A stretch of 64,000 nucleotides of DNA from Candidatus Limnocylindrales bacterium (GTDB lineage: Bacteria > Moduliflexota > Moduliflexia > Moduliflexales > JAUQPW01), in contig DATMBG010000022.1 of the NCBI GenBank assembly GCA_035559535.1, positions 124,001-188,000 on the forward strand, read 5' to 3'. How positions within the stretch are numbered: the stretch's first letter is position 1; the number at the start of each line of letters is the position of its first letter. The notes under the pieces are model-generated. The model searched no databases and was not told the origin of the DNA. It worked only from the letters and a program-made list of their open reading frames with translations. The position numbers were made by a program, and so were the translations under genes. Positions 21,671-41,637 of this stretch are shown here, piece by piece.

Positions 21671-21753
21671 TCCGGAAAAAGAGGGAGTAGAAGAAAGAAA
21701 CCGGGTTGATCTTAATCCCAGGTTTTTGACTCCTGACTCCTGAAACCCAAGGT

Positions 21754-22914
21754 ATGAATCGCCGTGATTTTCTTAAAGTTTTAAGCCTGACTCCCTTCAT
21801 TTCTTATATTCCTGACTTATCCTTTGCCGCCACATCCCAGACCAACTGGAATAATTTATTCATTTTATTGGAACTGAAGGGAGGAAATGATGGGTTAAAT
21901 ACGGTTATCCCCTATACCGATCCGACCTATTATGACCTGCGGCCTCGGCTCGGAATCACCCGGGATAAGGTCCTACAACTGGATGAGAAAGTAGGTTTCC
22001 ATCCGGCCCTGGAAGCTTTAATGCCGGTGTGGAAAAATGGCGAGTTAGCCGTAATTCAGAGTGTGGGTTATCCAGAACCGAATCTTTCTCATTTTCGTTC
22101 TATTGAGATCTGGGAAACAGCTTCCAATAGCAATCAATACTTATCAGAAGGTTGGTTATCACGGGTTTTTACTGCCTATCCTCCCCCCAAAACTTTTGCT
22201 GCCGACGCCATCGTGGTGGGAAGTTCTGATCTGGGACCTCTGGGTGGGGGTACCGCCCGAGTGGTTGTACTTTCCAATATCCAAAGATTCCTGGCCCAGG
22301 CTAAACAAAATGGTATCCCCAACGGCAGGCCTGCCAATCCGGCATTGGCACATATTCTCAAGGTCGAGGAAGATATTCGTCAGGCGGCTGAGGGTTTGAA
22401 AACCTCCGACGTGCTTAAAACTGAGTTCCCGGACTCTCCTTTTGGAAATGCTTTAAAAACCGCATCTCGAATTATTGCAGGTAATTCAGGTGTCGCCGTT
22501 ATCAAGGTTTCTTTAGATGGATTCGATACCCACAGCAATCAATCCAACCGGCAAGAACGTTTACTCCGTGAGATGGCTGAAGGCCTAAGCGCTTTCAGGG
22601 AAGCATTGATGGAAATCAACCGTTGGAATTCGACCCTCATCATGAGTTACTCGGAATTTGGCCGCAGACCCAGGGAAAACTTAAGTACCGGCACAGATCA
22701 TGGTACGGCCAATGTTCATTTCATGTTGGGTGGACGTGTGAAAGGAGGTCTATACGGTCAGATCCCTCAGCTTAAATCACTGGAGGGGGACAATCTCCGC
22801 TTTGCCCTAGATTTCCGTAGTCTGTATGCAACTGTTATAGAAAAGTGGTGGGGCCTCAACGCAAGCCCCGTACTAGGCAGGAAATTTGAGGTGTTGGATA
22901 TATTAAAAGTTTAA
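21754..22914 (+). CDS. DUF1501 family protein with Tat signal
   Basis: MNRRDFLK twin-arginine motif, LKGGNDGLNTVIPY, SHFRS, GFDTH, SEFGR, GTDHG. Confidence 0.92.
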   Translation: MNRRDFLKVLSLTPFISYIPDLSFAATSQTNWNNLFILLELKGGNDGLNTVIPYTDPTYYDLRPRLGITRDKVLQLDEKVGFHPALEALMPVWKNGELAVIQSVGYPEPNLSHFRSIEIWETASNSNQYLSEGWLSRVFTAYPPPKTFAADAIVVGSSDLGPLGGGTARVVVLSNIQRFLAQAKQNGIPNGRPANPALAHILKVEEDIRQAAEGLKTSDVLKTEFPDSPFGNALKTASRIIAGNSGVAVIKVSLDGFDTHSNQSNRQERLLREMAEGLSAFREALMEINRWNSTLIMSYSEFGRRPRENLSTGTDHGTANVHFMLGGRVKGGLYGQIPQLKSLEGDNLRFALDFRSLYATVIEKWWGLNASPVLGRKFEVLDILKV

Positions 22915-23102: not shown

Positions 23103-24191
23103 TTAACGCTTAGAATAAAAATGGAGGGTAATATGGGGAAAAGACCAGAGGGCAATATAATCCACATCAAATAACACATTCAGGGATTGGAAAGGGTGTA
23201 GATGGGATAATCCATAAAGGGCCAGAAAAAACAGATTAGCTAAGAGGAGTAGACCCAGAAAATGGGACGGGGAATGTTTGAACTTCCAGAAAGGGTCTCC
23301 CTGGTAATTGGCCGGAGGTCGGATACCAGTTAGGGGATTCGAGCCCTGGGACCTCAGCTCCGAAACCTGGGATTGGGAGTAAAGAACCCTTTCGATACCA
23401 AACAGATACCAGGTTATATAATGATAAAAAATCACAATTTTATTAAAACGGCCGGCAGATACACTGCTTACGATAAATTGATGGTAAAGAAGGACCAGCC
23501 CAATGATTCCTAAAGTATAAGCGGTACTTCGTAGAAAGGGATGCTCTTCTCCCTGGTGGGTTCGATAAAAGGAACTGATTCCCCAAATCAAAGCCACTCC
23601 CAGCAAAGCATAAAATCCCCAGGAGGACAGGCCCCGGTAAAAAGCAGCCAGATCATACTCTGAAGGCGGGACCAGGCCGTTGGTATAATTGGTATACAAC
23701 AGGGCAATAAAAACCAGAATCATAAAAATCCCATGAGCCTGAACTTTTTTATCCAATTTAGTATGCCTGAAATCAGAACTTCGCTGGACATAGAAAACAT
23801 GTTCATCGCGAATCATGTGGATAATAAAATAAACCATGAAAGGGAAGCCCCGGTACTGAATAGGAACCCAACCATAATAGATAACAGGAAAAATAAGGAT
23901 CAAAGGGAAGAAAGTTAAGAAGAAAAAAAGCTTTTTCTTGCGGGTTGTCAGCGTTCTCCTTAAGACATTGTAGTGAAACAAGTAAGAAACACCAAAATGA
24001 ACTTGACTGGTAATCATAAAGAAGACTTCCAGGCTATCAAACCCAAAAAACTTGGCTGTAAGCGACAGGGAAACAAACGTGATCCCCAGACTCAGGAGGA
24101 CATTATCTACAAAGTATTTCTGGGGGTTCCAGGAAAAGGTTTTCTCCTTGAGGATGGGAGAAATCGAGGTTTTTAAAGTCATTTGTTCCAT
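23103..24191 (-). CDS. Polytopic membrane protein with four His-containing motifs (possible metalloenzyme)
   Basis: Many hydrophobic segments. QVHFGVSY, IHMIRDEH, FYHYITWY, FPHITLH. Last gene of the cluster. Confidence 0.7.
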   Translation of the reverse strand: MEQMTLKTSISPILKEKTFSWNPQKYFVDNVLLSLGITFVSLSLTAKFFGFDSLEVFFMITSQVHFGVSYLFHYNVLRRTLTTRKKKLFFFLTFFPLILIFPVIYYGWVPIQYRGFPFMVYFIIHMIRDEHVFYVQRSSDFRHTKLDKKVQAHGIFMILVFIALLYTNYTNGLVPPSEYDLAAFYRGLSSWGFYALLGVALIWGISSFYRTHQGEEHPFLRSTAYTLGIIGLVLLYHQFIVSSVSAGRFNKIVIFYHYITWYLFGIERVLYSQSQVSELRSQGSNPLTGIRPPANYQGDPFWKFKHSPSHFLGLLLLANLFFLALYGLSHLHPFQSLNVLFDVDYIALWSFPHITLHFYSKR

Positions 24192-24259
24192 ACGCTTAGT
24201 CGGTTAAGAGCTTTTGATAAAAGCCCCCATCGCCCGATTGAAATTTATCAAAAGTTCTT

Positions 24260-25768
24260 TTAACCGATTTCCCTTAACTCTCTTTTTTTAATCTTACCTG
24301 TTTCCGTTCTGGGGAGTTTATCACAGATAATAATATATTTGGGTCTTTTGATCGGACTTAAGCGGCCGACACAGAATCTCAGGATTTGATCAGAATCTAA
24401 ATAGAAACCTTCTTTAGGAACTATATAAGCCTGAATGGCTTCTCCTAACCACTCATCCGGTACCCCGACTACGGCACAATCTGCAACCCCCTCATGACCG
24501 ATCAAAACAGCCTCAATCTCAGAGGGGTGGATATTTTCGCTGCCACTCTTAATCAGGTCTTTCTGACGTCCTGCCAGGTATAAATACCCTTCTTCATCCA
24601 TCCATCCCAGATCTCCGGTATGAATTCCATCTTCTTTAAAAACCTGCCGGGTTGCTTCTTCATTTTTATAATACCCTATGGCACTATGATCACACCGAAT
24701 AACAATCTCCTTTTCGGACCCTTCCTCTCCCTTTGCAAGGTGAACCTGCACCTCCGGAATAATGCGCCCACAAGATCCCGCTTTTTCTTGAAGTTTTTCC
24801 GGAGGTAAAACTGTGACCAAACCCACTTCGGTCAGGCCATAGGTCAGATAAATATCTACCCGGGGAAAAGCCTCACGAAGGTTCCGGATCAGTTGGGGCG
24901 TAACCTGGCCTGCTCCGATTCGGAAGTATCTTAAAGAAGTTAAGGTATAGCGCCGAATATCGCCCCGGGATAATAAGGTGTGGTAAACTGTTGGTACCGC
25001 CGAGAGTCCCGTAACTTGCTCTGCTTCCATGGAGGCCAGAACCGAGTTCGGGGAAAGAAAATTCCGCTCCAGAATTACGGTTGCCCCAACCATGAGATGG
25101 GCCAGAAGAAAAATTTTATTCATCCCGAAAAACAAAGGAAGCACAAGGGAAGTTCGATCTCTGGCCGAGATTTGGAAGTATTTAATATTCAGCTCCGCAT
25201 TCCGGATAAGATTCTTGTGGGGAAGAAGTACACCTTTAGGAATTCCTGTAGTTCCGGAAGTGTAATTGATACAGGCAATAGAAGGCGAATCCCCTCCTCT
25301 ACTTCGATTCTCCAGTTCTTCCCTTCTTCCCTTCTCCCCTTCTCTGATTTTCCCTTTCTCCCCCTCATCGGTTAACAAAATGGTAAGAGATTCAAACTGA
25401 CTTGAAATCTGCTCCCATAAATTCCTTTGAATCTTCTCGGTAATAAGCATTTTAATCTCGCATTGCCGGACAATACGGATGATTTCCTCGGGTTTAAAGG
25501 ACGGATTTATGTCTACAACGATCCCTCCCACCTTCCAGATGGCAAAAAGGGCCAGAACCAGCTCCGGGGAGTTCCAGCAACAAATTCCGATTCTTTCCCC
25601 CGGCGTTACTCCTCTTCGAATAAGATCATGAGCCAGCCGATTTGTTTGTTCTTCAAGTTCTCGATAGGTGTAACGTATTCCTTGTGAAACCAGTGCTGTT
25701 GCTTCTGGAAACCGATTTGCGCTCTGACTCAGTAAGTCTGCTAAGGTTTTTATAGACATAGAGTTCAT
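24260..25768 (-). CDS. AMP-dependent ligase (ANL superfamily)
   Basis: YTSGTTGIPKG, TYGLTE, HTGDLG, GRQKDLIKSG, LPRTETGKI. Confidence 0.93.
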   Translation of the reverse strand: MNSMSIKTLADLLSQSANRFPEATALVSQGIRYTYRELEEQTNRLAHDLIRRGVTPGERIGICCWNSPELVLALFAIWKVGGIVVDINPSFKPEEIIRIVRQCEIKMLITEKIQRNLWEQISSQFESLTILLTDEGEKGKIREGEKGRREELENRSRGGDSPSIACINYTSGTTGIPKGVLLPHKNLIRNAELNIKYFQISARDRTSLVLPLFFGMNKIFLLAHLMVGATVILERNFLSPNSVLASMEAEQVTGLSAVPTVYHTLLSRGDIRRYTLTSLRYFRIGAGQVTPQLIRNLREAFPRVDIYLTYGLTEVGLVTVLPPEKLQEKAGSCGRIIPEVQVHLAKGEEGSEKEIVIRCDHSAIGYYKNEEATRQVFKEDGIHTGDLGWMDEEGYLYLAGRQKDLIKSGSENIHPSEIEAVLIGHEGVADCAVVGVPDEWLGEAIQAYIVPKEGFYLDSDQILRFCVGRLSPIKRPKYIIICDKLPRTETGKIKKRELREIG

Positions 25769-25826
25769 AACAGACTATCTCTCTCAACCCGGTGGGGAAG
25801 GAGAATAAGGTAAAGAAATTCTGATC

Positions 25827-27680
25827 TTACCCATTAAAAACTTTGTGCCACCGTTCCAGAAAATAAAGACGGATCAAAGCATAATGTTTCTGGGTAAAAA
25901 GACCCGATGAACCTTCCTGGAAAGATGCCAGGAAAGCGTCTAACTTTTCTCTATTGAAATAAGCCTCGATGGCGAGGTGGGGTTGTTTCAAAGAAGTCAG
26001 CATGGCGTTTATTAATTCCTGGACCTCGAAGGGAGGAGGCATGGGACTTTTCTTGCGCATAAGAATGGTTTCCGGAAAATCCGGGAGATATTTCCGAATC
26101 ATGCGTTTTAAAAAATGTTTTTCATCGGATTTTTGAGTTTTGATCTCACCGGGAAGATTTAGTATCCACTCTACCAACCGATGGTCCAGAAAGGGAACGC
26201 GAACTTCTACCGAGGAGGCCATACTATGACGGTCTTCAATCTCCAGCATTTCGTGAAGATGCAATTTAACGAATAAATAACTTAGTTTGTTAAAGAAATC
26301 CGATGTTTTAGCCCTGGCCAGGTACTCTTCAAACCGGTCCTGATGGACTTCCCAGTAGAAGGTTTCCCATCGAAATTCATCTGTAACCAGGGTCTCTAAG
26401 AAGTCCACAGCACTGATGGGATAATCCGGTTTTCTGGGATCTGTACGCCAGATCCAGGGAAAGAACGTGGTATTCTGACGATCCTTCCGTTGTAACCAGT
26501 AGTAATAACCCCCAAAAAGTTCGTCGGCCCCCTGTCCGGATAAAAGAACCCGAACCTTTTGAGAAGCTTCCTGATTTAACAGAAAGTGACCATATTCCGA
26601 GAGGGTAACCAGAGGTTTTTCCCGATGCCAGATCATTCGATCAATGGCTTCACAAAGTGAGTCTGTAGGGAGAATGTAGAGATGATGATCCGTCTTAAGC
26701 TTTTGGGCGAAAAGCGATGCATAATACGTATCATCCCCCCGGACTTCCCCTACGATACGATGAGGGTTCTGTTTAAAAACTTCGGTATTTCGGGTATATC
26801 CAATGTTAAAGGTCTTTAAAAAAGGATGATACTTCAGGGCGAGTGCCGTTACAAGGCTTGAATCCAGACCTCCACTTAAACAGGCACCCAATGGGACATG
26901 GGAAAATAACTCCTGGTGGACAGACTCATCCAAAAAATTGTAGAGGTTCTCCAGGTCATCCTCGTCCTGATTTCGGGTTCTCGACGTCCAATATCCCATT
27001 TCTGAAAAAGGCACATCCCAGTACTCTCGAATTTTTAAACCCTTTCTGGAAACTTCCAGAAAATGGCCCGGACTCAAGGCCTGAATACCCCGAAATAGGG
27101 TGTTAGGAACCAAAGGAAACCCGCAGAACAGATACTCTGCTATGGCTTCGGGGTTTACTTCTACCGGGTGATCGGATTGGGCTAAGATAGCCTTGATTTC
27201 TGAGGCAAAGACAAATTTACCGGATTTCATCCCATAGAACAAAGGCTTTATTCCCAGACGATCCCGTGCCAGAAAAAGTTTCTCCTGCTTCTCATCCCAT
27301 ATGGCAAAGGCAAACATTCCATTTAAAAGATGGAGGCAATCGATTCCATAGACTTCATACGCCCGAAGAATAACTTCCGTATCGCTTCCGGTTACAAAAC
27401 AATATCCACGTTTTTCTAAATTTTCTCGGATCTCTCGATGATTGTAAATTTCTCCATTAAATACAATCCACAGGGACTGTTCCCGGTTCGATAGAGGCTG
27501 AGCCCCTGATTCTAAATCGATAATGGAAAGTCGCTGACTGCCCAGTCCTATAAACTCTCGAAAGTAAATTCCATTCTGATCCGGTCCTCGATGAGCCAGG
27601 GCACGATTCATAGCTCGAAGGGTCTCAGGATCGACCTTTTCTGAGTGATCGGTGATAAAAATTCCAGAAATTCCACACAT
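25827..27680 (-). CDS. asnB: Asparagine synthase-like glutamine amidotransferase
   Basis: MCGI N-terminal nucleophile, HRGPD, RLSIID, FNGEIYN, SGGLDSS, SGQGADELFGGY, RVPFLD. Confidence 0.93.
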   Translation of the reverse strand: MCGISGIFITDHSEKVDPETLRAMNRALAHRGPDQNGIYFREFIGLGSQRLSIIDLESGAQPLSNREQSLWIVFNGEIYNHREIRENLEKRGYCFVTGSDTEVILRAYEVYGIDCLHLLNGMFAFAIWDEKQEKLFLARDRLGIKPLFYGMKSGKFVFASEIKAILAQSDHPVEVNPEAIAEYLFCGFPLVPNTLFRGIQALSPGHFLEVSRKGLKIREYWDVPFSEMGYWTSRTRNQDEDDLENLYNFLDESVHQELFSHVPLGACLSGGLDSSLVTALALKYHPFLKTFNIGYTRNTEVFKQNPHRIVGEVRGDDTYYASLFAQKLKTDHHLYILPTDSLCEAIDRMIWHREKPLVTLSEYGHFLLNQEASQKVRVLLSGQGADELFGGYYYWLQRKDRQNTTFFPWIWRTDPRKPDYPISAVDFLETLVTDEFRWETFYWEVHQDRFEEYLARAKTSDFFNKLSYLFVKLHLHEMLEIEDRHSMASSVEVRVPFLDHRLVEWILNLPGEIKTQKSDEKHFLKRMIRKYLPDFPETILMRKKSPMPPPFEVQELINAMLTSLKQPHLAIEAYFNREKLDAFLASFQEGSSGLFTQKHYALIRLYFLERWHKVFNG

Positions 27681-27725
27681 AACTGAAAGTCTAAAGTTTA
27701 AAATTCGAAGCCTTTTAGACTTTCC

Positions 27726-28214
27726 TCAATTTGAGGCTTCAAACTTTGGACTTTGGACTGAATAGGCGACGCAGGTGTTTCGAACCGAAAGTTGATGTTG
27801 CTCCAGGAAAGCTATTTTCTCTTCAGGGGGATACGGCTGTTGGGGATTACCCATCTCCATACACTTTTTGGCTAAAAGTCCTTGAATCGAGATATGACAG
27901 GCATCCAATATAAGGTTGGTGAGATGAGTACATCCTTCCTTTCCACCGATTTGCCGCTCCAGAAGAAAGGTCAGACCTGGCCTGATCTGGAGTCCCACGC
28001 ATTTAGATATCTGAGTCAAAGCTGCGGGACAGATAGGATAGGGAGTTTGATTTATCCGGGGTTTAATCGAAACGATCACCAGATCCGGATACTGGAAGAT
28101 CACTTCAACCCCCATATCATGGAAAGAATCTTTCATACTTACCGTTACAACCAACCGGTTTTCTAGGTCATCCCAGAGAACTTTATAATCTTTTTTTCGA
28201 TGAAAAAGCTCCAT
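27726..28214 (-). CDS. DUF2889-like protein (Cys/His-rich)
   Basis: FHDM, PYPICP, GCTHL and NTC motifs. Confidence 0.7.
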   Translation of the reverse strand: MELFHRKKDYKVLWDDLENRLVVTVSMKDSFHDMGVEVIFQYPDLVIVSIKPRINQTPYPICPAALTQISKCVGLQIRPGLTFLLERQIGGKEGCTHLTNLILDACHISIQGLLAKKCMEMGNPQQPYPPEEKIAFLEQHQLSVRNTCVAYSVQSPKFEASN

Positions 28215-28232
28215 ATTCTCCCATTCTCCCGT

Positions 28233-29825
28233 TCACTTCAATAAAGACCTTTGGGTTTTACCCAACACGGTCTTGGGAAGGGAATCTGAGAATTCAATCA
28301 CTTTAGGTACTTTAAAAGATTCCAGGTAACGGGCGCAGTACCCCATCAGTTCATGGGGATCGGGTGTAAATTTGGGGTCACAAACGACCCAGGCTTTTAC
28401 CACTTCCCCTAAGATTCCGGCTGGATCTGGGATGCCTGTCACCGCAGCTTCTCTAACCGCCGGATGCTTACGCAAGACGGCCTCTATTTCCTCTGGACTG
28501 ATCTTCTCTCCCCCACTGTTAATCAATTCATCGGTACGACCCAGTAAGAAGAGATAGTTTTCTGAGTCTAAGTAGCCATAATCCGGGGTCAACAGAGTTC
28601 CATCGGACCACAAGCATTGTTGCGTAAGATCTGGTCGATTCCAATAACCTTTCATAATCATGGAACTTTTAACCGCCACACGACCCGGTTTGTTAACTCC
28701 TAGGGGTTGACCCTGCTCATCTAAAATCGAAAGTGTTACCCCTGGATAAGGCTGTCCTACGGAACCCGCCTTCCGATCCGGTTCTGTAACTTCCCGGAAA
28801 CACACCCGACTGACCTCTGTAAGACCATAGGTTACAAATAACCGCGTGGTCGGTAAGGCTGTTTTGAGTTGGGTGAGGAGAGAAGGAGGAGCCGGTGAAG
28901 TACCCAGGGTAATATAGCGCAGATGCCTTTGGCATCTTTTCAACAGGGATTCATAGCGATCCATAAAAAGCGTTAATCCACCTGGAACTCCGGAGAATCC
29001 CGTGACCTGTTCCCCATGAAATTGCTTTAAAACCTGGGCCGGGTAGGTCAAATTCTTTGCCAGAATTAAAGTTCCCCCTGCTCGCAAACAACCGTCTATC
29101 TCCCGGAGTCCGTATAGATGGAAAAGAGGGACCAGAATCCCCATTCGATCCCGAGAAGTTAATTTCAGAAACTCTTTTCCGGTTTCCGCAATAACCTCTA
29201 AATTTCCGTGGGTCAGCATAACCCCCTTCGGTTGTCCGGTTGTTCCACTGGTATAAATAATAGCGGCCAGATCGTCTTCGATGTCCTTCTCCCGCCCTTC
29301 TATATTCCTTTGCATGCCGGAGGAATTGAGGGCATAGGCGCCAGGATAAAGCTTGGCTGAAGGCGTAACCGGAGGATGAGGATGCGAGACCCCAAAGGGG
29401 CGGGAATATGAAGAGAGAAAGAAAATTTCCACCTCACCTTCTCCCAGAGTTATGGGATCCCCAAAACCCAAAGAAATCAGATCTCCGGCATAGGAATGGA
29501 TTCGCTTTTCCAGGAACAACGCTTTGGGTGAGCAATCTTCAAGGGTATGGGTTAAGGCCTCTAAGGTCGTGGAGGGATTTAAAGGAACGACCACTCCCCC
29601 AACTTGAAGGATAGCAAGATAAGCGATCACAAAGTCTGGAGAATTATCCAGGAGCAGACAAATGCGATCTCCTGGAGCTATTCCGTTCTGTTGTAAAATA
29701 CCGGCAAGTCGATCCACCAAAGTATCTAACTGCGCATAGGTAAGACGATACTCTTCCTGGACTACTGCCTCTTTTCCTGGAGAAAGAGCCCTGTATTGTT
29801 TTAAAAACTCGTGTAATCTGGCCAT
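28233..29825 (-). CDS. AMP-dependent ligase (ANL superfamily)
   Basis: YTSGTTGQPKG, TYGLTE, GRTDELINSGGEK, LPKTVLGK. Immediately follows an ACP. Confidence 0.93.
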   Translation of the reverse strand: MARLHEFLKQYRALSPGKEAVVQEEYRLTYAQLDTLVDRLAGILQQNGIAPGDRICLLLDNSPDFVIAYLAILQVGGVVVPLNPSTTLEALTHTLEDCSPKALFLEKRIHSYAGDLISLGFGDPITLGEGEVEIFFLSSYSRPFGVSHPHPPVTPSAKLYPGAYALNSSGMQRNIEGREKDIEDDLAAIIYTSGTTGQPKGVMLTHGNLEVIAETGKEFLKLTSRDRMGILVPLFHLYGLREIDGCLRAGGTLILAKNLTYPAQVLKQFHGEQVTGFSGVPGGLTLFMDRYESLLKRCQRHLRYITLGTSPAPPSLLTQLKTALPTTRLFVTYGLTEVSRVCFREVTEPDRKAGSVGQPYPGVTLSILDEQGQPLGVNKPGRVAVKSSMIMKGYWNRPDLTQQCLWSDGTLLTPDYGYLDSENYLFLLGRTDELINSGGEKISPEEIEAVLRKHPAVREAAVTGIPDPAGILGEVVKAWVVCDPKFTPDPHELMGYCARYLESFKVPKVIEFSDSLPKTVLGKTQRSLLK

Positions 29826-29827
29826 GT

Positions 29828-30121
29828 TTATTGAATCCCAAACTTTTCTCCAAGGTACTTCATTACGGCTTCTAAAGAGCCAAAGTTTTCGGGCATGATA
29901 TCTTCCCCTGGAATTTTGATCTTGCAGAGTTTTTCAATAAACACAACAAAATCCAGAAGAGAAAGGGAATCAAAGATCCCTTGATCGATAAAAGAATCTG
30001 TACTTTGAAGGGTAGTAATCCCCTTCCCCTGTAAAGCCGGCAAACTCAGAATATAATTTTCGAGCGCCTGTGTTACGTTTGTGGGTTGTCTGTTGACGAT
30101 CTTCGGTTGTTCCCGGTCCAA
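29828..30121 (-). CDS. Acyl/aminoacyl carrier protein
   Basis: GIFDSLSLLDFV (Ppant Ser) and IMPENFGSL, a DltC-like pattern. Confidence 0.85.
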   Translation of the reverse strand: MDREQPKIVNRQPTNVTQALENYILSLPALQGKGITTLQSTDSFIDQGIFDSLSLLDFVVFIEKLCKIKIPGEDIMPENFGSLEAVMKYLGEKFGIQ

Positions 30122-30197
30122 TTTTTATCGTCCGTTATCTGTTATCTGCCGTTTTCGGCTATAGAAGAAAAACAACCGACAACAGGTAACGGGTCCA

Positions 30198-31430
30198 TCA
30201 ACCAAAAAATAGACGCTGATAAGCCTGGAGGGTTACTTCCAACGGCTTACCGGTGATTCCATCCCAAAAACTTCGATGAATAAGGGCTATAAACGAAAAG
30301 GTAAGGGCAGTTTTTAGAGCTAAAAGGAGGATTCTTATCCCAGGACTCTTCACTTTAAGAGAAAATTCTTTTATCCATGGAGTCTGGGAAATCTTTGAAA
30401 TAACGGCAATGGCTAAACCAAAGGATCCAAAGGCCAGGGTTAGTTGAATGACAGCATCCCACGTTATGGCCGGTGTTACCAGAAGATGCCAGAGACCGCT
30501 GACTAAAAAGGTCGTTAGGATTTTAGCAGTTATCTGCTTATGCCCCCAGAAGGGATAAAAAACATGGGTCATGAGCCATCGATAAGTCGAAATGTTGGAA
30601 GTTTTCCAATATTGAACAGGGCTGGAGGACAGAAGTGGATTTGCAAAATTTTCATAAAGATTAAATCCCAGAAGTCGAGACAGGGCAATCGCCATATCTG
30701 TAAAACCGGAAAAAGCCCAATAAAAGCGAATTAAAAGCAGGCAAAAAGTACCCCATAGGAAAAGTCTCGGGTCCAGGTGTTGAAGAAAAGGATGGGGGAC
30801 AGAACCCTCCGCCCATTGTTGCAGTTTATTGTAGAGATTCTGAGAGTAAGGAGTCAAAACAAAAAACTTAATCCCTCCCCAGGTCATTTTAAGGAGGTTA
30901 TAAGGAACCAGTTGGGACCAATTAGAAATCTGAGGTTGATAACTCTTATAAAAATCATTGAACGAAACCACAGGTCCGGCGAATAGGGTAGGAAGAAAAA
31001 ATATATAAAGGAGAAACTGATTGAATCGATCCCAACCGGTTAAAGAGGTTTTAGGACGTTTACTGAGGACAAAATCTATACTTCGAAGCAGGAAAAAGGC
31101 CTCTATTCCCTGACGACCCCAGAAGACATACTTGATGGCTGGTCGGGGGAATTGGTATTTAAGGAAAACAAAAGCGACTAAAACCCCCAAAACCAAAATG
31201 AACTTCTGATTTCGGGTTCGGTTTGTTTCCCCAATGAGATAGATGGTCAGGGCCGTCAGGGTAAATATTAGAAAATTTAACGGGGGAAACAGCCATAAAA
31301 GGGCTCCCAGGCTAATAAAGAGCATGGAGTATTCACGAACCTGGAATTTTCCCGTCCATTCCGAGGAAGGCTTTGCCGGAGTTACGTAAAAAATCGGAGT
31401 CGTTGTCAGGAGACCGGTAAGATTTTTCAT
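30198..31430 (-). CDS. MBOAT family membrane acyltransferase (DltB/AlgI-like)
   Basis: FLPTLFAGPV, FSGFTDMAIALSRLLG, ENFANP, SGLWH catalytic His. ATGA overlap with the upstream asnB. Confidence 0.88.
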   Translation of the reverse strand: MKNLTGLLTTTPIFYVTPAKPSSEWTGKFQVREYSMLFISLGALLWLFPPLNFLIFTLTALTIYLIGETNRTRNQKFILVLGVLVAFVFLKYQFPRPAIKYVFWGRQGIEAFFLLRSIDFVLSKRPKTSLTGWDRFNQFLLYIFFLPTLFAGPVVSFNDFYKSYQPQISNWSQLVPYNLLKMTWGGIKFFVLTPYSQNLYNKLQQWAEGSVPHPFLQHLDPRLFLWGTFCLLLIRFYWAFSGFTDMAIALSRLLGFNLYENFANPLLSSSPVQYWKTSNISTYRWLMTHVFYPFWGHKQITAKILTTFLVSGLWHLLVTPAITWDAVIQLTLAFGSFGLAIAVISKISQTPWIKEFSLKVKSPGIRILLLALKTALTFSFIALIHRSFWDGITGKPLEVTLQAYQRLFFG

Positions 31431-33244
31431 ACCTTAAAAACCCGATGCAAAAGTTCCAGGGTTAAAAGATACATGGAAATCTGCCACTGGGTCAGCAGAT
31501 CCACCCCTTCAAACTCATTTTTTCTTTCCAAGAAATCCTCTAATCGAGAAGGGTCGAAATAGGAAATAGCCCTTGAGTGGGGGCTTAAAAGGAGATCCCG
31601 GGTGAGCCGGAGTTGGTTGAACACCGAGGGTGGATCCCGGGGTATGGGCATGTGGGTTTTTTTTCGGTAAAGGATGGAATCTGGGAGAAAGCCCCGGAGC
31701 ATTTTTTTGAAGATATATTTACTCTGACCGTTTTTAACTTTTAATTCTGAGGGCATAGGCGCCAGGAGTTCAACCAATCGGTGGTCCAGAAAGGGAGGTC
31801 GTGTTTCCACCCCAAAAGCCAGGGAGGTCCGATCATGGAACTCCAAAAGCTCCAGAAGGAAGAACTTTAAATACAGATAAAGGGCCTGGTATAAGATATC
31901 CTGGTTAGAAACCCGGATCAGATGATCCGACAACTTTTGACCGAAGAGCTCTTCGGGTCTGATCGTCTTGCGAAACTCCTGGGAAAAGAGCTTGAGCATA
32001 ACTTTCCAGGAAGGGGCCCAGGGAAAGTAAGTAATTTGTCGGGTTTTTAAAATATCATCAAGACCCAGACCTCGCGATCCCAGATATCCGGCCAGGAGTT
32101 CATCGGCCCCTTCTCCACAGAGAACTACGGTGGCATAATCTTTAAGCTTTTCATAGAGGAGGTACATGGTGGCAGCCCCTTTATTAAAGGGTCTTTCTAA
32201 ATGCCAGGTCAATCGTTCCAGGGTGGAAAAATAGGCTTCAGGGGAAATTAAAAATTCATGATGTTTCGTTCCCAACGTTTGGGCGACGATTCTGGCATAG
32301 GTAGCATCATGGTCTTCCCCTTTCCAGGGATTTGGAAAGTCAATGGTAAAAGTTTGCAAAGAACCCGATAGCATCTGGCCGGCCCAGGTTGCGATGCTGC
32401 TGGAATCTGTACCTCCACTGAGTAAAACACCTAAAGGAACCTCTCCGACCAACCGAAGCCGGACGGCATCTTTAAGGAGTTCCATGAGGTGCTGCCCGTA
32501 ATACTTTTCCATCTCTTCCCCTTTAAGAGGGATGGGTTGGGTTGTCTCCGGAGAAGGAATTTCCCAATATTTTTTCAAACGATAATGAAAACCGGGTCTA
32601 CCGGTGTGAGCCATGGCGGTTAAGGTACAACCAGGAGGAAGGGTCCATATCCCTTTAAACAGGGTATGGGCTTCTAAAAGGGCTCCACAAAGGAGTACCT
32701 CAGCAACAGCTTCCAGATTAATATCCGGGGAAATGGCAGGATGTTGTAAAATAGCTTTAGCTTCCGATGCAAAAATAAATTGCCCATCGGCTATGGTATA
32801 GTGAAGAGGAACAATTCCCATCCGATCCCGGGCCAGAAAAAGTTTTTTTCCGGGATGATCCCAAATGGCAAAGGCAAACTGGCCGTTAAATTGTTCTACA
32901 CAATCCTCTCCGAAAGCTTCATAAGCATGTAAAACGACTTCCGTATCTGAGTCTGTTTTAAAACGATATCCCCGGCTTTTCAGAAGACGTTGAAGCTGTC
33001 GATAATTAAAAATTTCCCCATTATAGGTGATCCAGATCGAGCCATCTTCATTGGACATGGGTTGACGCCCGTATTCACGATCGATAATGGACAATCGCCG
33101 GTTTCCCAAACCTACCCGGTTGTTAAGATAGACGCCTACATCGTCAGGACCTCGATGACGCTGGATTTCATTCATTTTTTCCAGGGTTTCTACCTCAACA
33201 GGCTTATCTAAAGCAAAATTAAAGATTCCACTAATACCACACAT
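31427..33244 (-). CDS. asnB: Asparagine synthase-like glutamine amidotransferase
   Basis: MCGI, HRGPD, YNGEIFN, SGGTDSS, CGEGADELLAGY, RPPFLD. Confidence 0.93.
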   Translation of the reverse strand: MCGISGIFNFALDKPVEVETLEKMNEIQRHRGPDDVGVYLNNRVGLGNRRLSIIDREYGRQPMSNEDGSIWITYNGEIFNYRQLQRLLKSRGYRFKTDSDTEVVLHAYEAFGEDCVEQFNGQFAFAIWDHPGKKLFLARDRMGIVPLHYTIADGQFIFASEAKAILQHPAISPDINLEAVAEVLLCGALLEAHTLFKGIWTLPPGCTLTAMAHTGRPGFHYRLKKYWEIPSPETTQPIPLKGEEMEKYYGQHLMELLKDAVRLRLVGEVPLGVLLSGGTDSSSIATWAGQMLSGSLQTFTIDFPNPWKGEDHDATYARIVAQTLGTKHHEFLISPEAYFSTLERLTWHLERPFNKGAATMYLLYEKLKDYATVVLCGEGADELLAGYLGSRGLGLDDILKTRQITYFPWAPSWKVMLKLFSQEFRKTIRPEELFGQKLSDHLIRVSNQDILYQALYLYLKFFLLELLEFHDRTSLAFGVETRPPFLDHRLVELLAPMPSELKVKNGQSKYIFKKMLRGFLPDSILYRKKTHMPIPRDPPSVFNQLRLTRDLLLSPHSRAISYFDPSRLEDFLERKNEFEGVDLLTQWQISMYLLTLELLHRVFKV

Positions 33245-33247
33245 TTT

Positions 33248-33502
33248 TTAACCTCTTATCCTCTTACGTTGGATATAATCACAAATGGTATGGATACTCT
33301 GAAAATTTTCAGGTTGAAACTCTGCAGGAGATACAGTCAGATCAAATTGCCCTTCCAGAAAGTCGATCAAGTGGATCAAAGTCAAGGAGTTAAGAATACC
33401 GGTTTGCAAAAGCGGAGTATTTTTATCTAATTTTTCAACCTCAGCTTCCGGTAAAATCTGTTCGGCCAGGAATTTTCTAATTATTTTCTCCACTTCATCC
33501 AT
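33248..33502 (-). CDS. Acyl/aminoacyl carrier protein (NSL variant)
   Basis: GILNSLTLIHLI, FQPENFQSI, 84 aa. Confidence 0.82.
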   Translation of the reverse strand: MDEVEKIIRKFLAEQILPEAEVEKLDKNTPLLQTGILNSLTLIHLIDFLEGQFDLTVSPAEFQPENFQSIHTICDYIQRKRIRG

Positions 33503-33506
33503 AGGT

Positions 33507-34625
33507 TTAATCCGTTAAATTTAATAATACCCCTTCTTCAGGAGGAATGGCCCTCTGATCGGCCAACTTCCTTAAAGCAGCCACCGTGGTAGCTGCTGTA
33601 TAACCGCAGTCTATTTTTTCTAACTGAAACAGCAGCGCTTTGGCCTCTTTAATCTCCGTTTCTGTAACGCTGATAAAGGTACCCTTTGTTTCTTGAACCA
33701 ATCGATAAATATAAGGATAGCTGGTTACAGGATTGCCTCTTAGAATGGCTTTGGCGATTCCCTTAGGGTTTTTAACGATATGATGTTCCCGAATCACCGG
33801 GGATCCCTCTTCGAAGGCCTTAACCATAGGACAACAACCCTCTTGCTGGACACAAACCATTCGGGGAATATATCGGATTCTCCCCAAAGTCTGAAATTCT
33901 TTAGCCCCCTTGTAGGTTCCATAAACCCCCATGGCACTGCTGACGGCTTGAAAATACCATCGGATCTCCACAGGAACCTGATCAACGGCTTCCAGGAAGG
34001 CCAATTTGAGTCCTTCCCGTCGAGCCGGATTAAAAAAACCCGCCTCGAAGGGTAAATGATGGTGGAAAGCATATTCTCGTGCCTGATTAAAAGCTTCTGC
34101 AAAAGTCCTTCCTGTCAAAACATGGAGTAGAACACCGGGATTAAAATCCGAAAACCGAACCCGCTCCTGGAATTCTCCCCCAATGAAAAGATGCATTTTA
34201 AAATAGGGATATTTGAGAATTCCATATGCCAGGGCATTGGAGCTATTCCCGGTCGAAGAACTTACAAACTCTGTAATCTGAAGCTCTTTAAAAAAAGATA
34301 AAACCACAGCAGCCATTCGATCTTTTGTTGTACCGGTCGGATTTCGAGATTCGACTTTTAAGAAAACCTGTTTCAGCCCCAAGGCTTCTCCAAGAGCTTT
34401 CGCATGTACACAGGGGGTATTACCTTCTCCTAAAGGAAGGAGGTTTTGAGAATCCTGGATAGGAAGCAAATCAAAATATTTTTCCAGGGAGTGCGGCGAA
34501 TCGTAGATCTTGACCCGAGATAAATCGTAATAAATATCCACAAGACCCCCACAATAGGTACACTTAGGAGTATACGCATGGGGAAAGGTTTTTTGGCATT
34601 GGTTACAGCGATGAGTTAGTTTCAA
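33507..34625 (-). CDS. Threonine synthase-like fold-type II PLP enzyme
   Basis: N-terminal CxxC...CxxC zinc ribbon, LGEGNTP, NPTGTTKDR (PLP Lys), SSTGN, NPARREGLK. Confidence 0.88.
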   Translation of the reverse strand: MKLTHRCNQCQKTFPHAYTPKCTYCGGLVDIYYDLSRVKIYDSPHSLEKYFDLLPIQDSQNLLPLGEGNTPCVHAKALGEALGLKQVFLKVESRNPTGTTKDRMAAVVLSFFKELQITEFVSSSTGNSSNALAYGILKYPYFKMHLFIGGEFQERVRFSDFNPGVLLHVLTGRTFAEAFNQAREYAFHHHLPFEAGFFNPARREGLKLAFLEAVDQVPVEIRWYFQAVSSAMGVYGTYKGAKEFQTLGRIRYIPRMVCVQQEGCCPMVKAFEEGSPVIREHHIVKNPKGIAKAILRGNPVTSYPYIYRLVQETKGTFISVTETEIKEAKALLFQLEKIDCGYTAATTVAALRKLADQRAIPPEEGVLLNLTD

Positions 34626-34636
34626 CTTTGTATTTT

Positions 34637-34716
34637 TACTCTACCCTTGCAAGGGTTGATAAATCCTTAGCAGGTAAAGGAAATTCAGCACTTAAAATTT
34701 TTGCAAACGTAGAGTA
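34637..34716. mobile_element. Short TA-bounded inverted-repeat element (MITE-like)
   Basis: tactctacccttgcaa ... ttgcaaacgtagagta (14/16 IR). Followed by a GC-rich REP-like palindrome at about 34730-34815. Confidence 0.5.
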
Positions 34717-34820
34717 CTTTTATCTAACTCCTCCCCCAATCCTTCTCCCATATCAAGGGTGGGGGGGAAATCCACAGATTACCCCTATCTCCTCAAGAGA
34801 AAGGACTGGGGGTTAAGGAA

Positions 34821-36104
34821 TTATACCTGTTCTACAACCGTGACATTTCCAAAGGGAATCCCATAAGTTGAAGGATTGGATTTTCCAAGCTTTTCCAATG
34901 CGAGTTTTTTTGCTTCTTCCAAATGAGTAGCCGGAATAAAGCCCAGGAGTTCTACCTGATCTTTCGGACATCGGGAGATCAAGATCACCTGAATTCGCTG
35001 CAAAATCTCTTTAAGCAGGTAAGAATTATGCCCGGTGAGATCGTATTGGGTCTTTACAGCTTTGGCTAATTCCGGGAGAGAGGAAAATTTTGCCCAACGC
35101 AAGAAGCCTTCCTTAATACCCTGGGGACAGGCCGCCAGGAGGATGAAGACCCCGCCATCGACCACACACGTATGGGTATTCATAAGGGTTTTGAGTGCTT
35201 GCATGAAGGAAATATCATAAGGATGACCTCCACAACTGGCCATGGCCAGTTCTGCCTTTTCTTTAAAGGAAACCTTAAAAAGGTTATCTACCACCTGACA
35301 CCCCATGACGTGGGCAGAAACGGGATGACCCGCATAGACGTGGGTTAATTCATGGTTTAAATTCACGAGGGTATTTACCAGGAAACTAGGTCGAAATAAA
35401 GCGGCTGCTTCCAGCATGTCCAGATGGACAGGATTTCCTTCCAGACAACCATTCCTGGCCAGGATATTTCGCGGTTGAACTTCATTACCGGACATAACCA
35501 GTTTGTGATTATGTAAAATCGTTTCATATCCCGATACCCCAGGTAAGACAGCTTTACGACCGCCCGTGAATCCGGCAAAATAATGATGGGTAATCCGGCC
35601 TGTCAAAATCTTAATATCCGCTTCATAAGCCAGTCGATTGACCTCGATGGCATTCCCAAAGGAGGTTTTTCCCAAATAAACATGGTTTTCTTTGTTCATG
35701 CAGTCGTGCCCTATCACTCGGATTTCTTTATCAAAGTGAGGCCCCAAGATGATATTCATATCTTCGGTTGTAAACCGCTCATGAGTCCCCGTTGCAATAA
35801 TAACCGTGATATCCTGCTTACGGATTCCGGCCCGGAGCAGTTCCCGGATCAAAAGCGGCATAAAAATATCGCCCCGGGTTACACGGTCCTTACCGGATAC
35901 CAGAATTACAGCCGTTCGCCCAGATTTAGCCAATTCATATAGGGGTTCCCTTTCAATGGGTTTTTGAAGGGCTTTTTCTACTAAAAAGTCGGGGGGATGG
36001 GCAGGGGAAACGGAACGCGGCGTGAGAATGCCCAGAAAATTTCTTTGGGGAACCTCTGTTTGTACAACTTCAGAGCCATAACCTAACCGGATAATCTCAA
36101 ACAT
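34821..36104 (-). CDS. larA: Nickel-pincer-dependent lactate racemase family protein (LarA homolog)
   Basis: DRVTR, IATGTH, GHD, YLGKTSFG, HHYFAGFTGGRKAV, HNH, GNPVHLDM, GGHPYD. GGAGG RBS. Confidence 0.88.
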   Translation of the reverse strand: MFEIIRLGYGSEVVQTEVPQRNFLGILTPRSVSPAHPPDFLVEKALQKPIEREPLYELAKSGRTAVILVSGKDRVTRGDIFMPLLIRELLRAGIRKQDITVIIATGTHERFTTEDMNIILGPHFDKEIRVIGHDCMNKENHVYLGKTSFGNAIEVNRLAYEADIKILTGRITHHYFAGFTGGRKAVLPGVSGYETILHNHKLVMSGNEVQPRNILARNGCLEGNPVHLDMLEAAALFRPSFLVNTLVNLNHELTHVYAGHPVSAHVMGCQVVDNLFKVSFKEKAELAMASCGGHPYDISFMQALKTLMNTHTCVVDGGVFILLAACPQGIKEGFLRWAKFSSLPELAKAVKTQYDLTGHNSYLLKEILQRIQVILISRCPKDQVELLGFIPATHLEEAKKLALEKLGKSNPSTYGIPFGNVTVVEQV

Positions 36105-36167
36105 AACGGATCCTCCCGCTCATTTGAGCTTTTAAGATAACCGTCGAAAGTAACGAAAGTAAAAAAT

Positions 36168-36184
36168 TGCATGGAATGTGCCAA
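36168..36184 (-). promoter_or_regulatory. Sigma-54 (-24/-12) promoter for the larA-headed cluster
   Basis: Minus strand reads TTGGCACATTCCATGCA, an exact GG-N10-GC spacing with the TGGCAC core, about 64 bp upstream of the larA ATG. Confidence 0.72.
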
Positions 36185-36433: not shown

Positions 36434-37264
36434 ATGATAAAGATTTCATCTGCGCAGGGTTTTACGCTCTTAGAGACCCTCATGGTGACGGTTTTGTTTA
36501 CAACGGTTCTGATTTTATCTTTGGAATTTTTTCAACAACACCAGAAAATCTACTTCCGGTATCGGAGCGACGCGGAGATTATTCAAAATGCCCGAATGGC
36601 TTTAGATGCCATTTGTTCAGATTTGAGGGTTGCCGGTTATCATTTAGACCGGCAACAAAATCAGCCTGTTTTTATCGAAGCGGCTCCGTTTCAAATTATC
36701 TTGAATGCAGATAAGGACCCCGGTGAGCCGGTTTTGATTAAAAACGGTTTTGTCATGCTATCCAGTGGTACCCCCTATATTAACTCCCAGGATTACTCTA
36801 CAGGGGCTGAAACTATTCGATGGACTTTAGATTCGAATGATGATGGTCTCATCGATAACCGGGATATCGATGATAATCCAGAGGAGCGGGCCTCCCGATT
36901 TAACGACAATGATTTCGTTTTAATTCGAGAACTGAACGGAGGGCCGGATCAGCAGGTGGCTCTCTATCTCAGAGGGCCAATAGATGCTAAAAACAATCGT
37001 ACCTATGTGTCTCCTTTGTTTCAATATTGGATTTTGTCTTCCAATGGCTCTTTAATTTTATGGGGGGATACCGATGGGAATGGATTTTTAGAGGGGAATG
37101 AAATCTATTTCCCACCCCTGACTTCTCAAAGTGTTTTGGAGAAAATCAGGCGGATTACCGTGATGGTTTCGGTAGAGTCCGATGAGTGGGATCCTTTTCG
37201 TAATCCACCCGGCCATCGACAGGTCATCTTGAGTTCCGAGGTTGCAGTAAGGAACAACTTTTAA
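36434..37264 (+). CDS. Type IV minor pilin/pseudopilin (PilW-like)
   Basis: Prepilin cleavage motif QG|FTLLE plus a hydrophobic helix, QNARMALDAICSDLRVAGY, DxxxDG loops. Confidence 0.85.
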   Translation: MIKISSAQGFTLLETLMVTVLFTTVLILSLEFFQQHQKIYFRYRSDAEIIQNARMALDAICSDLRVAGYHLDRQQNQPVFIEAAPFQIILNADKDPGEPVLIKNGFVMLSSGTPYINSQDYSTGAETIRWTLDSNDDGLIDNRDIDDNPEERASRFNDNDFVLIRELNGGPDQQVALYLRGPIDAKNNRTYVSPLFQYWILSSNGSLILWGDTDGNGFLEGNEIYFPPLTSQSVLEKIRRITVMVSVESDEWDPFRNPPGHRQVILSSEVAVRNNF

Positions 37265-37341
37265 CATTCATAAAAAAGTCTAAACTCCGGAGTTGCCCTA
37301 TTTTTCCACTGTGGAACGATCTCAAGGAACCCTGACGGCGT

Positions 37342-37985: not shown

Positions 37986-38777
37986 ATGGAAGATATCCCC
38001 ATCCAGGACCTGTTGGAGGGGGCATCCAGGGCAAATCCCTTTTCTCTCTGGTTTCCTTTACCGGAGGTCCTTCTATTGGGAAATGACGAAGTCCATGTCT
38101 GGCGTGCGACCCTGAATGTAGAGATTTCGTATCTACACAACCTGCAGCAACTTCTCTCGGCGGATGAGCAGGTCCGGGCCGGGCGTTTTTACTTTCAGAA
38201 GGATCGTGAACGCTTTATCATCACACGGGGATTGTTAAGGAGGATCCTGGGACGTTATCTGGAGAGGGAACCGGGCCAATTGCAATTTGGCTATGGACCC
38301 TATGGAAAGCCTTATCTCACAGGAGAATTTAGCTACAGTAGATTGCGTTTCAACTTAGCTTATTCCCAGGAGCTTGCCCTCTACGCCATTACACAAGGTC
38401 GTGAAGTTGGGATAGATATTGAATATATCCGACCTCATCCGGCCAATATGCAGATAGCGCATCGGTTCTTTTCACCCTGCGAAGTTATGGCTTTAAAGGC
38501 CCTTCCTTTCCATCTGCAGCAAGAAGCATTCTTTAATTGCTGGACTCGCAAAGAAGCTTATATAAAGGCCAGAGGAAAGGGTCTTTCGTTTCCTTTGAAT
38601 CAATTCTCTGTATCCCTGGCACCCGGCGAGCCTGCCGCTCTACTCAATGTCCTGGAAGATCCCCAAGAAACCTCCCGTTGGTCACTTCAGACGCTGGAAC
38701 CGGGTTCCGGCTACGTGGCAGCTCTTGCCGTAGAAGGACAGGATTGGCGGCTTAAATGTTGGCAGGTACAGGGGTAG
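37986..38777 (+). CDS. Sfp/HetI-type 4'-phosphopantetheinyl transferase
   Basis: VHVW, LSADEQVRA, GPYGKP, FNLAYS, VGIDIE, WTRKEAYIKARGKGL. Confidence 0.93.
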   Translation: MEDIPIQDLLEGASRANPFSLWFPLPEVLLLGNDEVHVWRATLNVEISYLHNLQQLLSADEQVRAGRFYFQKDRERFIITRGLLRRILGRYLEREPGQLQFGYGPYGKPYLTGEFSYSRLRFNLAYSQELALYAITQGREVGIDIEYIRPHPANMQIAHRFFSPCEVMALKALPFHLQQEAFFNCWTRKEAYIKARGKGLSFPLNQFSVSLAPGEPAALLNVLEDPQETSRWSLQTLEPGSGYVAALAVEGQDWRLKCWQVQG

Positions 38778-41618: not shown

Positions 41619-41637
41619 AATTTTGGGTTGTAAGGGA

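Follow-up and report, generated by a model that had tools for sequence, protein, structure and literature searches.

The window analysed here, 64 kb in length (positions 124,001 to 188,000 of contig DATMBG010000022.1 from assembly GCA_035559535.1, deposited as a Candidatus Limnocylindrales bacterium), contains an operon of 11 open reading frames (ORFs) that joins two carrier proteins, two ligases and two amidotransferases with a membrane-bound O-acyltransferase (MBOAT). All 11 ORFs lie on the minus strand between positions 23103 and 36104. The first gene encodes a homologue of the LarA-family nickel-pincer nucleotide (NPN) 2-hydroxyacid racemases/epimerases (427 aa, 34821..36104; Lar_N, E 1.6e-61, and LarA_C), and its start at 36104 is preceded by a GGGAGGA ribosome-binding site. 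It is followed by a ThrC-family fold-type II pyridoxal 5'-phosphate (PLP) enzyme with an N-terminal Cys-rich ribbon (372 aa, 33507..34625; PALP, E 2.7e-43), the carrier protein ACP1 (84 aa, 33248..33502; PP-binding, 26 bits against a cut-off of 20.8), the Gln-hydrolysing amidotransferase AsnB1 (605 aa, 31427..33244; GATase_7 and Asn_synthase) and a divergent, DltB/AlgI-like MBOAT (410 aa, 30198..31430; PF03062, 55.2 bits against 27). The second half consists of the carrier protein ACP2 (97 aa, 29828..30121; PP-binding, 20.2 bits and hence slightly below the cut-off of 20.8), whose true start may lie a few codons further downstream, ANL ligase 1 (530 aa, 28233..29825; AMP-binding, E 5e-81, and AMP-binding_C), a DUF2889 protein (162 aa, 27726..28214; PF11136, 66.3 bits against 25), a second Gln-hydrolysing amidotransferase, AsnB2 (617 aa, 25827..27680; GATase_7 and Asn_synthase), ANL ligase 2 (502 aa, 24260..25768; AMP-binding, E 1.2e-80, and AMP-binding_C) and a polytopic His-rich membrane protein (362 aa, 23103..24191), for which no Pfam or NCBIfam family scored above cut-off.

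According to the ORF coordinates, the intergenic distances from larA to the membrane protein gene are 195, 4, 3, -4, 76, 2, 18, 45, 58 and 68 bp. The ACP1 gene thus begins 4 bp after the thrC-like gene and ends 3 bp before asnB1, and the last 4 bp of asnB1 are shared with the beginning of the MBOAT gene. An Sfp/HetI-type 4'-phosphopantetheinyl transferase (PPTase; 263 aa, 37986..38777, plus strand; ACPS and AASDHPPT_N) is encoded 1.88 kb from the larA start. An earlier, sequence-only reading of this DNA had listed 11 co-oriented genes with named domains and an Sfp-type PPTase about 1.9 kb away; the ORF list and the Pfam and NCBIfam searches agree with it for every domain call. Its operon end at position 36184 has to be corrected, since larA begins at 36104, about 80 bp less. 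For none of the 11 proteins did Pfam, at E <= 0.01, report a condensation or ketosynthase domain, the mark of an assembly line for nonribosomal peptides or polyketides, as that reading had also stated.

Conservation of the gene set elsewhere was sought, and its linkage recurs widely. The window belongs to a genome that is 95.8% complete (G000); the genome of a sister species of the same genus (G001) contains all 11 genes in identical order, with 82-98% amino-acid identity. A metagenome scan with an alignment of eight MBOAT sequences recovered 13 loci, with which the window proteins were compared by tblastn. The gene set is present, whole or in pieces, in all 13 of them, the encoded cluster proteins are 40-60% identical to those of the window, and the G+C content of the loci is 0.485-0.729 compared with 0.446 in the window. 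The gene asnB1 stands directly upstream of the MBOAT gene in seven of the nine loci with visible upstream DNA, and the run larA-thrC-ACP1-asnB1-MBOAT is complete in L085, L087 and L088. Wherever both genes are visible, ACP2 adjoins ligase 1 (L083, L085, L086, L090, L091, L093 and L095, as well as the window and G001). L085, L086, L090 and L091 contain the full run ACP2-ligase 1-DUF2889-asnB2-ligase 2, which in L087, L088, L089 and L093 is cut short by a contig end; in the metagenome loci ligase 2 always comes after asnB2. The two operon halves are co-linear in the window and L093 and convergent in L085-L091, and in L086, L090 and L091 ACP2 has a PPTase homologue as its immediate neighbour. The paralogues form separate orthologue groups: identities within the AsnB1 and AsnB2 groups are 53-58% and 50-56%, respectively, and 35-39% across, and the ligases and carriers likewise fall into distinct groups. 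A reduced version in L083 comprises only asnB1-MBOAT-ACP2-ligase 1-membrane protein. Every locus long enough to judge contains the MBOAT, ACP2, ligase 1 and at least one AsnB, which constitute the invariant core; LarA, the ThrC-like enzyme, ACP1, DUF2889, AsnB2 and ligase 2 are accessory.

The eleven-gene operon is real and it is rare. At E <= 1e-40, G000 itself and G001 were the only two of 41 relatives with a member of the MBOAT subfamily, and matches came from 0 of 401 genomes each in the phyla of a Planctomycetaceae, a Blastocatellia and a Polyangiaceae metagenome-assembled genome (MAG), zero counts that hold for the genomes searched. A scan of genome contigs with a 22-sequence MBOAT alignment used patterns that were too generic, and the 80 loci kept were all ordinary MBOATs of 24-32% identity. 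Full-text searching of the literature found no paper describing this gene combination, in line with the sequence-only reading, which had not recognised it from any characterised pathway.

The MBOAT is the sole PF03062 match in G000 and belongs to a sharply bounded subfamily: in a search of 5.8 billion proteins, 28 matched at E <= 4e-37, and the next match followed at 1e-15. Residues N261, H297 and H315, which we take to be the catalytic MBOAT positions, are invariant in all 22 subfamily sequences. Several members of the subfamily are labelled DltB or AlgI by JGI. For the complex of the MBOAT with ACP2, structure prediction gave an ipSAE of 0.66 (0.66, 0.65 and 0.67 in the single runs) versus 0.00 for the best of three controls; of 80 solved complexes 58 attain the mark applied to this score, as do 2 of the 110 mismatched pairs. 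Contact agreement between the runs was at least 92%, and the pLDDT of the partners was at least 76. In the model, ACP2 residues 51-53, including Ser52, and 70-79, with the PENF motif, are placed against MBOAT residues 284-300, beside the invariant H297. The phosphopantetheine serine of ACP2 is predicted to dock on this conserved MBOAT loop.

In five metagenome loci (L086, 2116-5130; L087, 4534-7455; L089, 10001-12961; L090, 534-3458; L091, 204-3146) the MBOAT frame runs on for 598 residues, and in two others the corresponding module is a separate gene directly downstream (L085, 6794-8665; L088, 7253-9133). This module of about 600 aa includes a thioredoxin-like domain (E 3.7e-16 to 3u5r in a profile search of the PDB; also AhpC-TSA), in which only one cysteine, that of CPV(S/A), is conserved, and a CxxCH haem motif that is invariant and followed by MPPW. 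Its C-terminal domain has conserved HH, H, HxH and M motifs, presumably PHM/DBH-like. A Cu2_monoox_C row reached 19.9 bits, below the cut-off of 23, and the PDB profile search of the module returned the thioredoxin-like domain only. Hence, the identity of this domain as a copper monooxygenase is possible and a lead only. Attachment of c-type haem occurs outside the cytoplasm. Since the fusion partner bears a c-type haem motif (CxxCH), the MBOAT would deliver to the outer face of the inner membrane, and the fusion in other lineages argues for an extracytoplasmic destination. An orthologue of the module was not found in the window's genome; here, as in L083, the His-rich membrane protein takes its place. 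For this protein the search of 5.8 billion proteins gave seven homologues only, one of which follows ligase 1 in L083. Residues H125, R128, D129, E130, H257, R268, H310 and H353 are invariant. The AlphaFold2 (AF2) model is all-helical with a pLDDT of 59.9, too poor for a fold search, and an ESM Atlas search returned unnamed clusters only.

The two carriers share a G-x-x-(N/D)-S-L region and the PENF motif. Ser39 of ACP1, in an NSL motif, is invariant, and so is Ser52 of ACP2, in a DS(L/M)S motif, in all 10 sequences compared. In NCBIfam, both carriers weakly match carriers of secondary metabolism, AmcB of cispentacin and AsbD of petrobactin, and the best row of ACP1 is the carrier of the OlsHI ornithine-lipid pathway (55.9 vs 130 bits). 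The ornithine-lipid lead given by this row was rejected: the score lies below cut-off, and OlsH uses neither ACP nor CoA (PMC12493201). The PPTase scored 256 bits with the HetI model, for which the cut-off is 370.

The closest stand-alone solved relatives of both ligases are oxalate-CoA and malonyl-CoA ligases. For ligase 1 these are oxalate-CoA ligase and malonyl-CoA synthetase, and for ligase 2 the oxalyl-CoA synthetase 6qjz and the oxalate-CoA ligase 5ie0. The A4 region of the ligases reads PLFH or PLFF; amino-acid adenylation domains carry FDxS at A4. These features suggest, weakly, non-amino and possibly dicarboxylic acids as substrates. Between G000 and G001, ligase 1 is the least conserved cluster protein (82% vs 88-98% for the rest), and its matched stretch in G001 (L116, 7554-9284) is about 47 codons longer (577 vs 530).

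Both amidotransferases score above the cut-off of TIGR01536 (AsnB1 460 and AsnB2 488 vs 267 bits), a result that does not show aspartate to be the substrate. Each begins with MCGI and keeps the Cys2 nucleophile, which makes amidation plausible. AsnB1 and AsnB2 should therefore hydrolyse glutamine and amidate an adenylated carboxylate.

The best solved relative of the LarA homologue is the malate racemase Mar2 (6d6z, E 7.8e-67), and all marks of the LarA superfamily are present, namely the Lar_N and LarA_C domains and equivalents of the catalytic and NPN-ligand residues. D73, R74, H108, H174, K184, H200 and K305 are invariant in the four cluster orthologues. For LarA, PMC7583248 gives D72, H108, H174 and K298 as catalytic residues and R75, K184 and H200 as NPN ligands. 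The genome encodes larB, larC and larE (NF033503, PF01969 and TIGR00268 with 306, 500 and 359 bits, respectively, all above cut-off). Since the residues are intact and these three genes are present, a D-configured 2-hydroxy acid is plausible. In the NCBIfam comparison the homologue stayed below the cut-offs of both LarAH10 (374/540 bits, top row) and Mar (357/500 bits); LarAH10 is described in PMC11770544 as a hydrophobic 2-hydroxyacid racemase family. The specificity positions are Y-F, L/I-K and G-H-N, compared with Y-K, Q-K and GHK in Mar2. K173 and K351 of Mar2, proposed in PMC7583248 to bind the second carboxylate of malate, are replaced by F176 and N360 in all four cluster orthologues and in a homologue from the Acidobacteriota genome G528. 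Because both malate-binding lysines are lost and the operon contains two amidotransferases, a carboxamide-bearing 2-hydroxy acid would be an attractive substrate. The organism seems unusually rich in LarA homologues: G000 has six Lar_N matches on contigs C10, C22, C29, C21 and C51, among them a second one on the window's own contig, at C22:267676-268245. The LarE and LarB genes are adjacent on contig C37.

The ThrC-like enzyme is not the housekeeping threonine synthase, since it scores below the cut-off of TIGR00260 (92.8 vs 167.1 bits) and three other loci in the genome pass. Its NPTGTTKDR motif contains what is presumably the PLP lysine. Several ThrC-like and MBOAT-subfamily matches share the same longest-contig size (111906, 18644, 12119 and 10818), which suggests that these proteins are encoded on the same contigs. 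Among 301 genomes in the phylum of a Longimicrobiales MAG, no ThrC-like match was found. LarA and the ThrC-like enzyme are paired in three metagenome loci (L085, L087 and L088). The pair also occurs in G528, in a cassette at 6987-12938 of L121 (G528:C52) with the order methyltransferase, LarA homologue, ThrC-like enzyme and a single adenylation-thiolation-thioesterase (A-T-TE) protein, beyond which a MOSC protein and a TetR regulator are encoded. Here, too, the LarA homologue belongs to the same subgroup (HYF, LK and AHN signatures), the ThrC-like enzyme is 49% identical, and both lie directly upstream of a carrier-loading enzyme whose A domain is nearer to ligase 2 than to ligase 1 (112 vs 70 bits). 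In contrast to the operon, the G528 cassette lacks MBOAT, AsnB and DUF2889, and its carrier is fused to the A and TE domains; it is likewise uncharacterised. Since the pair also stands in front of the G528 A-T-TE protein, LarA and the ThrC-like enzyme may be regarded as a portable building-block pair for carrier-protein systems.

In the DUF2889 protein, the cysteines C62, C95 and C148 do not vary across 71 sequences, and conservation is 92% or more for D29, H32 and H97. The AF2 model has a pLDDT of 94.5. Foldseek found no match in the PDB at E <= 0.001, the only two rows from a profile search of PDB sequences were at chance level, and a search of the ESM Atlas returned DUF2889 clusters only. 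VIA-align listed the IscU, NifU and SufU chains 1q48 (Z 7.2), 5uft (6.3), 4eb5 (6.1), 8ztq and 2qq4 (5.7 each) and 6a6f (5.4), interspersed with unrelated folds of equal Z. As a lead only, the protein is a candidate for a Cys3-His metal or sulfur site.

Of the known systems, the Gram-positive Dlt pathway (DltA ligase, DltC carrier, DltB MBOAT, DltD and DltX) is similar in that an ANL ligase loads a small acid on a dedicated carrier and an MBOAT exports it, and in that the carrier serine is placed at the conserved MBOAT loop, here in the complex model. However, the operon has two carriers, two ligases, two AsnB, LarA, the ThrC-like enzyme and DUF2889, its ligases are of the acyl-CoA-synthetase type and not D-Ala adenylating, and its host is a diderm, as BamD and an LptD_N/LptA-family protein are encoded. 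The MBOAT reached 44.1 bits with the DltB model TIGR04091 (cut-off 375), ACP1 reached 29.7 bits with the DltC model NF003464 (cut-off 68), and ACP2 gave no DltC row at E <= 0.001. No DltA model was among the best 25 of the 107/108 NCBIfam families for either ligase. By sequence, the operon thus appears to work like Dlt but falls outside it in every membership test that was run, i.e. the DltB and DltC cut-offs, the DltA-type ligase and DltD. In the O-acetylation systems AlgI/AlgJ/AlgF/AlgX, PatA/PatB and WssH, an MBOAT also passes an acyl group to a periplasmic partner that decorates an envelope polymer. Those systems have neither carrier nor ligase, and their partner is of the SGNH or AlgX type, in contrast to the His-rich membrane protein of the operon or the fused module of other lineages. 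With Mar2 (LarAH6) and the LarA superfamily the LarA homologue shares the fold, the residues and the NPN biosynthesis genes; it differs from Mar2 by the two replaced lysines and by its context, which is biosynthetic rather than catabolic.

The XrtA/PEP-CTERM (exosortase A) set is similar because it pairs, by the names of its models, an AMP-forming ligase (TIGR03098) with an AsnB-type amidotransferase (TIGR03108), and both models rank among the better NCBIfam rows of the cluster proteins. All scores are below cut-off, with 278 and 343 vs 592 bits for the ligases (TIGR03098) and 444 and 432 vs 817 bits for AsnB1 and AsnB2 (TIGR03108), and the set is itself uncharacterised (hypoth_equivalog). A nearer match is a third AsnB paralogue in the window, asnB3 (662 aa, 38849-40837, minus strand), which fits the XrtA/PEP-CTERM amidotransferase model best (622 vs 817 bits). 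It adjoins BamD (40845-41657) and a five-repeat PEGA-domain protein (41638-42828) and was not found conserved alongside the cluster in the other loci.

On balance, we hold it to be probable, with some reserve, that the operon encodes a dedicated acyl-export pathway of the Dlt-like kind. This assignment builds on the gene content, the conserved linkage and the intact catalytic residues, together with the predicted docking of ACP2 on the MBOAT. In such a pathway the Sfp-type PPTase would prime the two private carriers. The two ligases of acyl-CoA-synthetase type would activate small carboxylic acids as adenylates and attach them to the carriers as thioesters; short dicarboxylic or 2-hydroxy acids are the most likely ones. 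Ligase 1 would load ACP2 and ligase 2 probably ACP1, a pairing which we infer, as we do the substrates, the order of amidation and loading and the identity of the acceptor. The two Gln-hydrolysing AsnB enzymes would adenylate the remaining free carboxylate and convert it to a carboxamide, and LarA and the ThrC-like enzyme would supply a non-standard block, which could be a D-2-hydroxy acid or else a modified amino acid. Finally, the MBOAT would take the acyl unit from the ACP2 arm at the cytoplasmic face to an acceptor on the outer face of the inner membrane. The His-rich membrane protein would be the outer-side partner here; in other lineages this role would fall to the module with thioredoxin-like, CxxCH and possible copper-monooxygenase-like parts.

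The sequence-only reading had proposed that ligase, ACP and MBOAT follow the Dlt logic and that an amidated or D-configured unit, built on ACPs, is moved to the envelope. The logic is supported by the adjacency of the genes, the PPTase beside ACP2, the docking model and the MBOAT fusions, but membership in Dlt itself is not, given the missed DltB and DltC cut-offs, the lack of a listed DltA model and the lack of DltD. Of the unit, amidation by the AsnB-like enzymes and racemisation of a 2-hydroxy acid by the LarA homologue come out as plausible, in view of the retained Cys2 in both AsnB and of the LarA residues and NPN genes.

Several findings weigh against such a pathway. L089 and L092 contain no larA, thrC, ACP1 or asnB1 within 10 kb upstream of the MBOAT gene, and in L084 thrC is followed directly by asnB1, without ACP1; consequently, the two-arm scheme is not universal. 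The ThrC-like subfamily comprises 1235 proteins at E <= 1e-60 versus 28 in the MBOAT subfamily. Because of this size and the G528 context beside an A-T-TE protein, without MBOAT or AsnB, the LarA and ThrC-like arm can serve other end points. The pass in the docking prediction may mirror a likeness to DltB-DltC, since that complex is solved. The best NCBIfam row for both ligases is PRK06187, a long-chain-fatty-acid-CoA ligase (352 and 404 vs 476 bits), and since their top names are generic subfamilies of this kind, a fatty-acyl reading stays open. The DltD search (PF04914) gave no match in the 95.8%-complete G000, with B. subtilis and L. lactis as positive controls, and the cluster contains no outer-side transferase of the SGNH or AlgX type. 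Thus, the step after the MBOAT is left without a catalyst of known type.

Some of the same evidence could also be explained by a soluble or secreted, natural-product-like metabolite made from carrier-bound amidated acids, in which case the MBOAT would only O-acylate or export and no polymer would be decorated. The G528 cassette, with its methyltransferase and single A-T-TE protein of nonribosomal-peptide-synthetase-like type, would fit this, as would the dedicated Sfp-type PPTase and the weak AmcB and AsbD matches of the carriers. Moreover, glycan or lipid A genes do not flank the operon in the window. Nevertheless, we regard this explanation as unlikely, because the 11 genes provide no condensation, ketosynthase, thioesterase or other release or joining enzyme, and because no other component is as tightly linked or as specific to the cluster as the MBOAT, which is fused in five loci to an extracytoplasmic module. 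The PRK06187 rows would suit a remodelling of lipids, with fatty-acyl-AMP/ACP ligases, a LarA racemising 2-hydroxy fatty acids or other hydrophobic 2-hydroxy acids, an MBOAT acylating a membrane lipid of the aminolipid type and AsnB enzymes amidating its head group. The LarAH10 row, the specificity positions of the LarA homologue, which are less polar than those of Mar2, and the OlsHI row of ACP1 point the same way. All these scores are below cut-off, however, OlsH needs neither ACP nor CoA, and the closest solved stand-alone ligases are those for oxalate and malonate. Furthermore, a fatty acid thioester would leave no carboxylate for two AsnB to amidate, and lipid remodelling appears distinctly improbable.

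An ordinary member of a known MBOAT system, be it D-alanylation by Dlt or O-acetylation of the AlgI, PatA or WssH type, is suggested by the combination of MBOAT, carrier and ligase, which is the gene logic of Dlt, and by the JGI names. The DltB and DltC scores far below cut-off, the lack of DltA models among the best rows and of DltD in the genome, the additional AsnB, LarA, ThrC-like and DUF2889 genes, and an E-value gap of more than 20 orders of magnitude between this MBOAT subfamily and generic MBOATs make it a very poor candidate. Even less can be said for a chance juxtaposition of unrelated genes. The 195-bp gap and the gaps of 45-76 bp inside the array would allow it, but the genes are linked on 13 contigs of differing G+C content and gene order, co-linear or as two convergent modules, and asnB1 and the MBOAT gene overlap by 4 bp. 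Since the linkage is conserved, we consider chance to be refuted, with hardly any residual probability.

With respect to the DNA of the operon itself, the 195-bp spacer between larA and the thrC-like gene (34626-34820, minus strand) folds into two strong hairpins with a minimum free energy of -72 kcal/mol (z -4.08). None of 200 shuffles folded equally well. The genome contains a single copy of this spacer, and its counterpart in G001 is 91% identical; within the operon, it may serve for attenuation, processing or stability. Rfam gave no family at gathering score anywhere in the window, and upstream of larA and the thrC-like gene its rows are chance-level microRNA hairpins only; hence there is no riboswitch clue to a ligand. 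A promoter scan performed no better than shuffles (20 found vs a shuffle mean of 23.3). A terminator-like hairpin, by consensus match only, lies at 23005-22982, about 100 bp past the last gene. The operon is directly adjoined by a DUF1800 and DUF1501 gene pair (20126-22914, plus strand), also present in G001. Between the operon and the PPTase gene lie two pilin-like genes (36434-37791, plus strand), one with a prepilin N-methylation motif and the other with a weak ComGE-like match; G001 has both, and neither was observed in the metagenome loci. An IstB-like IS21 helper ATPase (47402-48160, plus strand), about 11 kb from the operon, is a possible remnant of a mobile element.

Going beyond the Dlt-like export pathway, the operon might represent a hitherto unknown class of diderm envelope modification, a proposal that we make tentatively and rate as rather doubtful. 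Here, LarA and the ThrC-like enzyme would make a new, non-proteinogenic block, e.g. an acid that derives from a D-2-hydroxy acid and bears a carboxamide, such as D-2-hydroxysuccinamate, or possibly a dicarboxylic amino acid with an ether or amine bridge, arising by PLP-dependent beta- or gamma-replacement. Private ACPs would carry it, AsnB would amidate it, and the MBOAT would export it without DltD, DltX or SGNH and with new outer partners, the His-rich membrane enzyme here and the fused module in other lineages, DUF2889 contributing an IscU-like Cys3-His metal or sulfur centre.

If the Dlt-like assignment is true, carrier-fed export by an MBOAT, known from teichoic-acid D-alanylation, would extend to diderms and to amidated cargo, with outer-side partners unlike any studied helper. 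A LarA-family nickel-pincer racemase would also, for the first time, have a biosynthetic role together with a ThrC-like PLP enzyme, in a pairing that appears to be widespread, judging from the 1235 ThrC-like relatives, and there would be a functional context for DUF2889 and two proteins without a family. In known systems, surface amidation and esterification alter charge and resistance to antimicrobial peptides. The product of the operon could therefore, if the assignment holds, matter for envelope physiology in poorly studied phyla.

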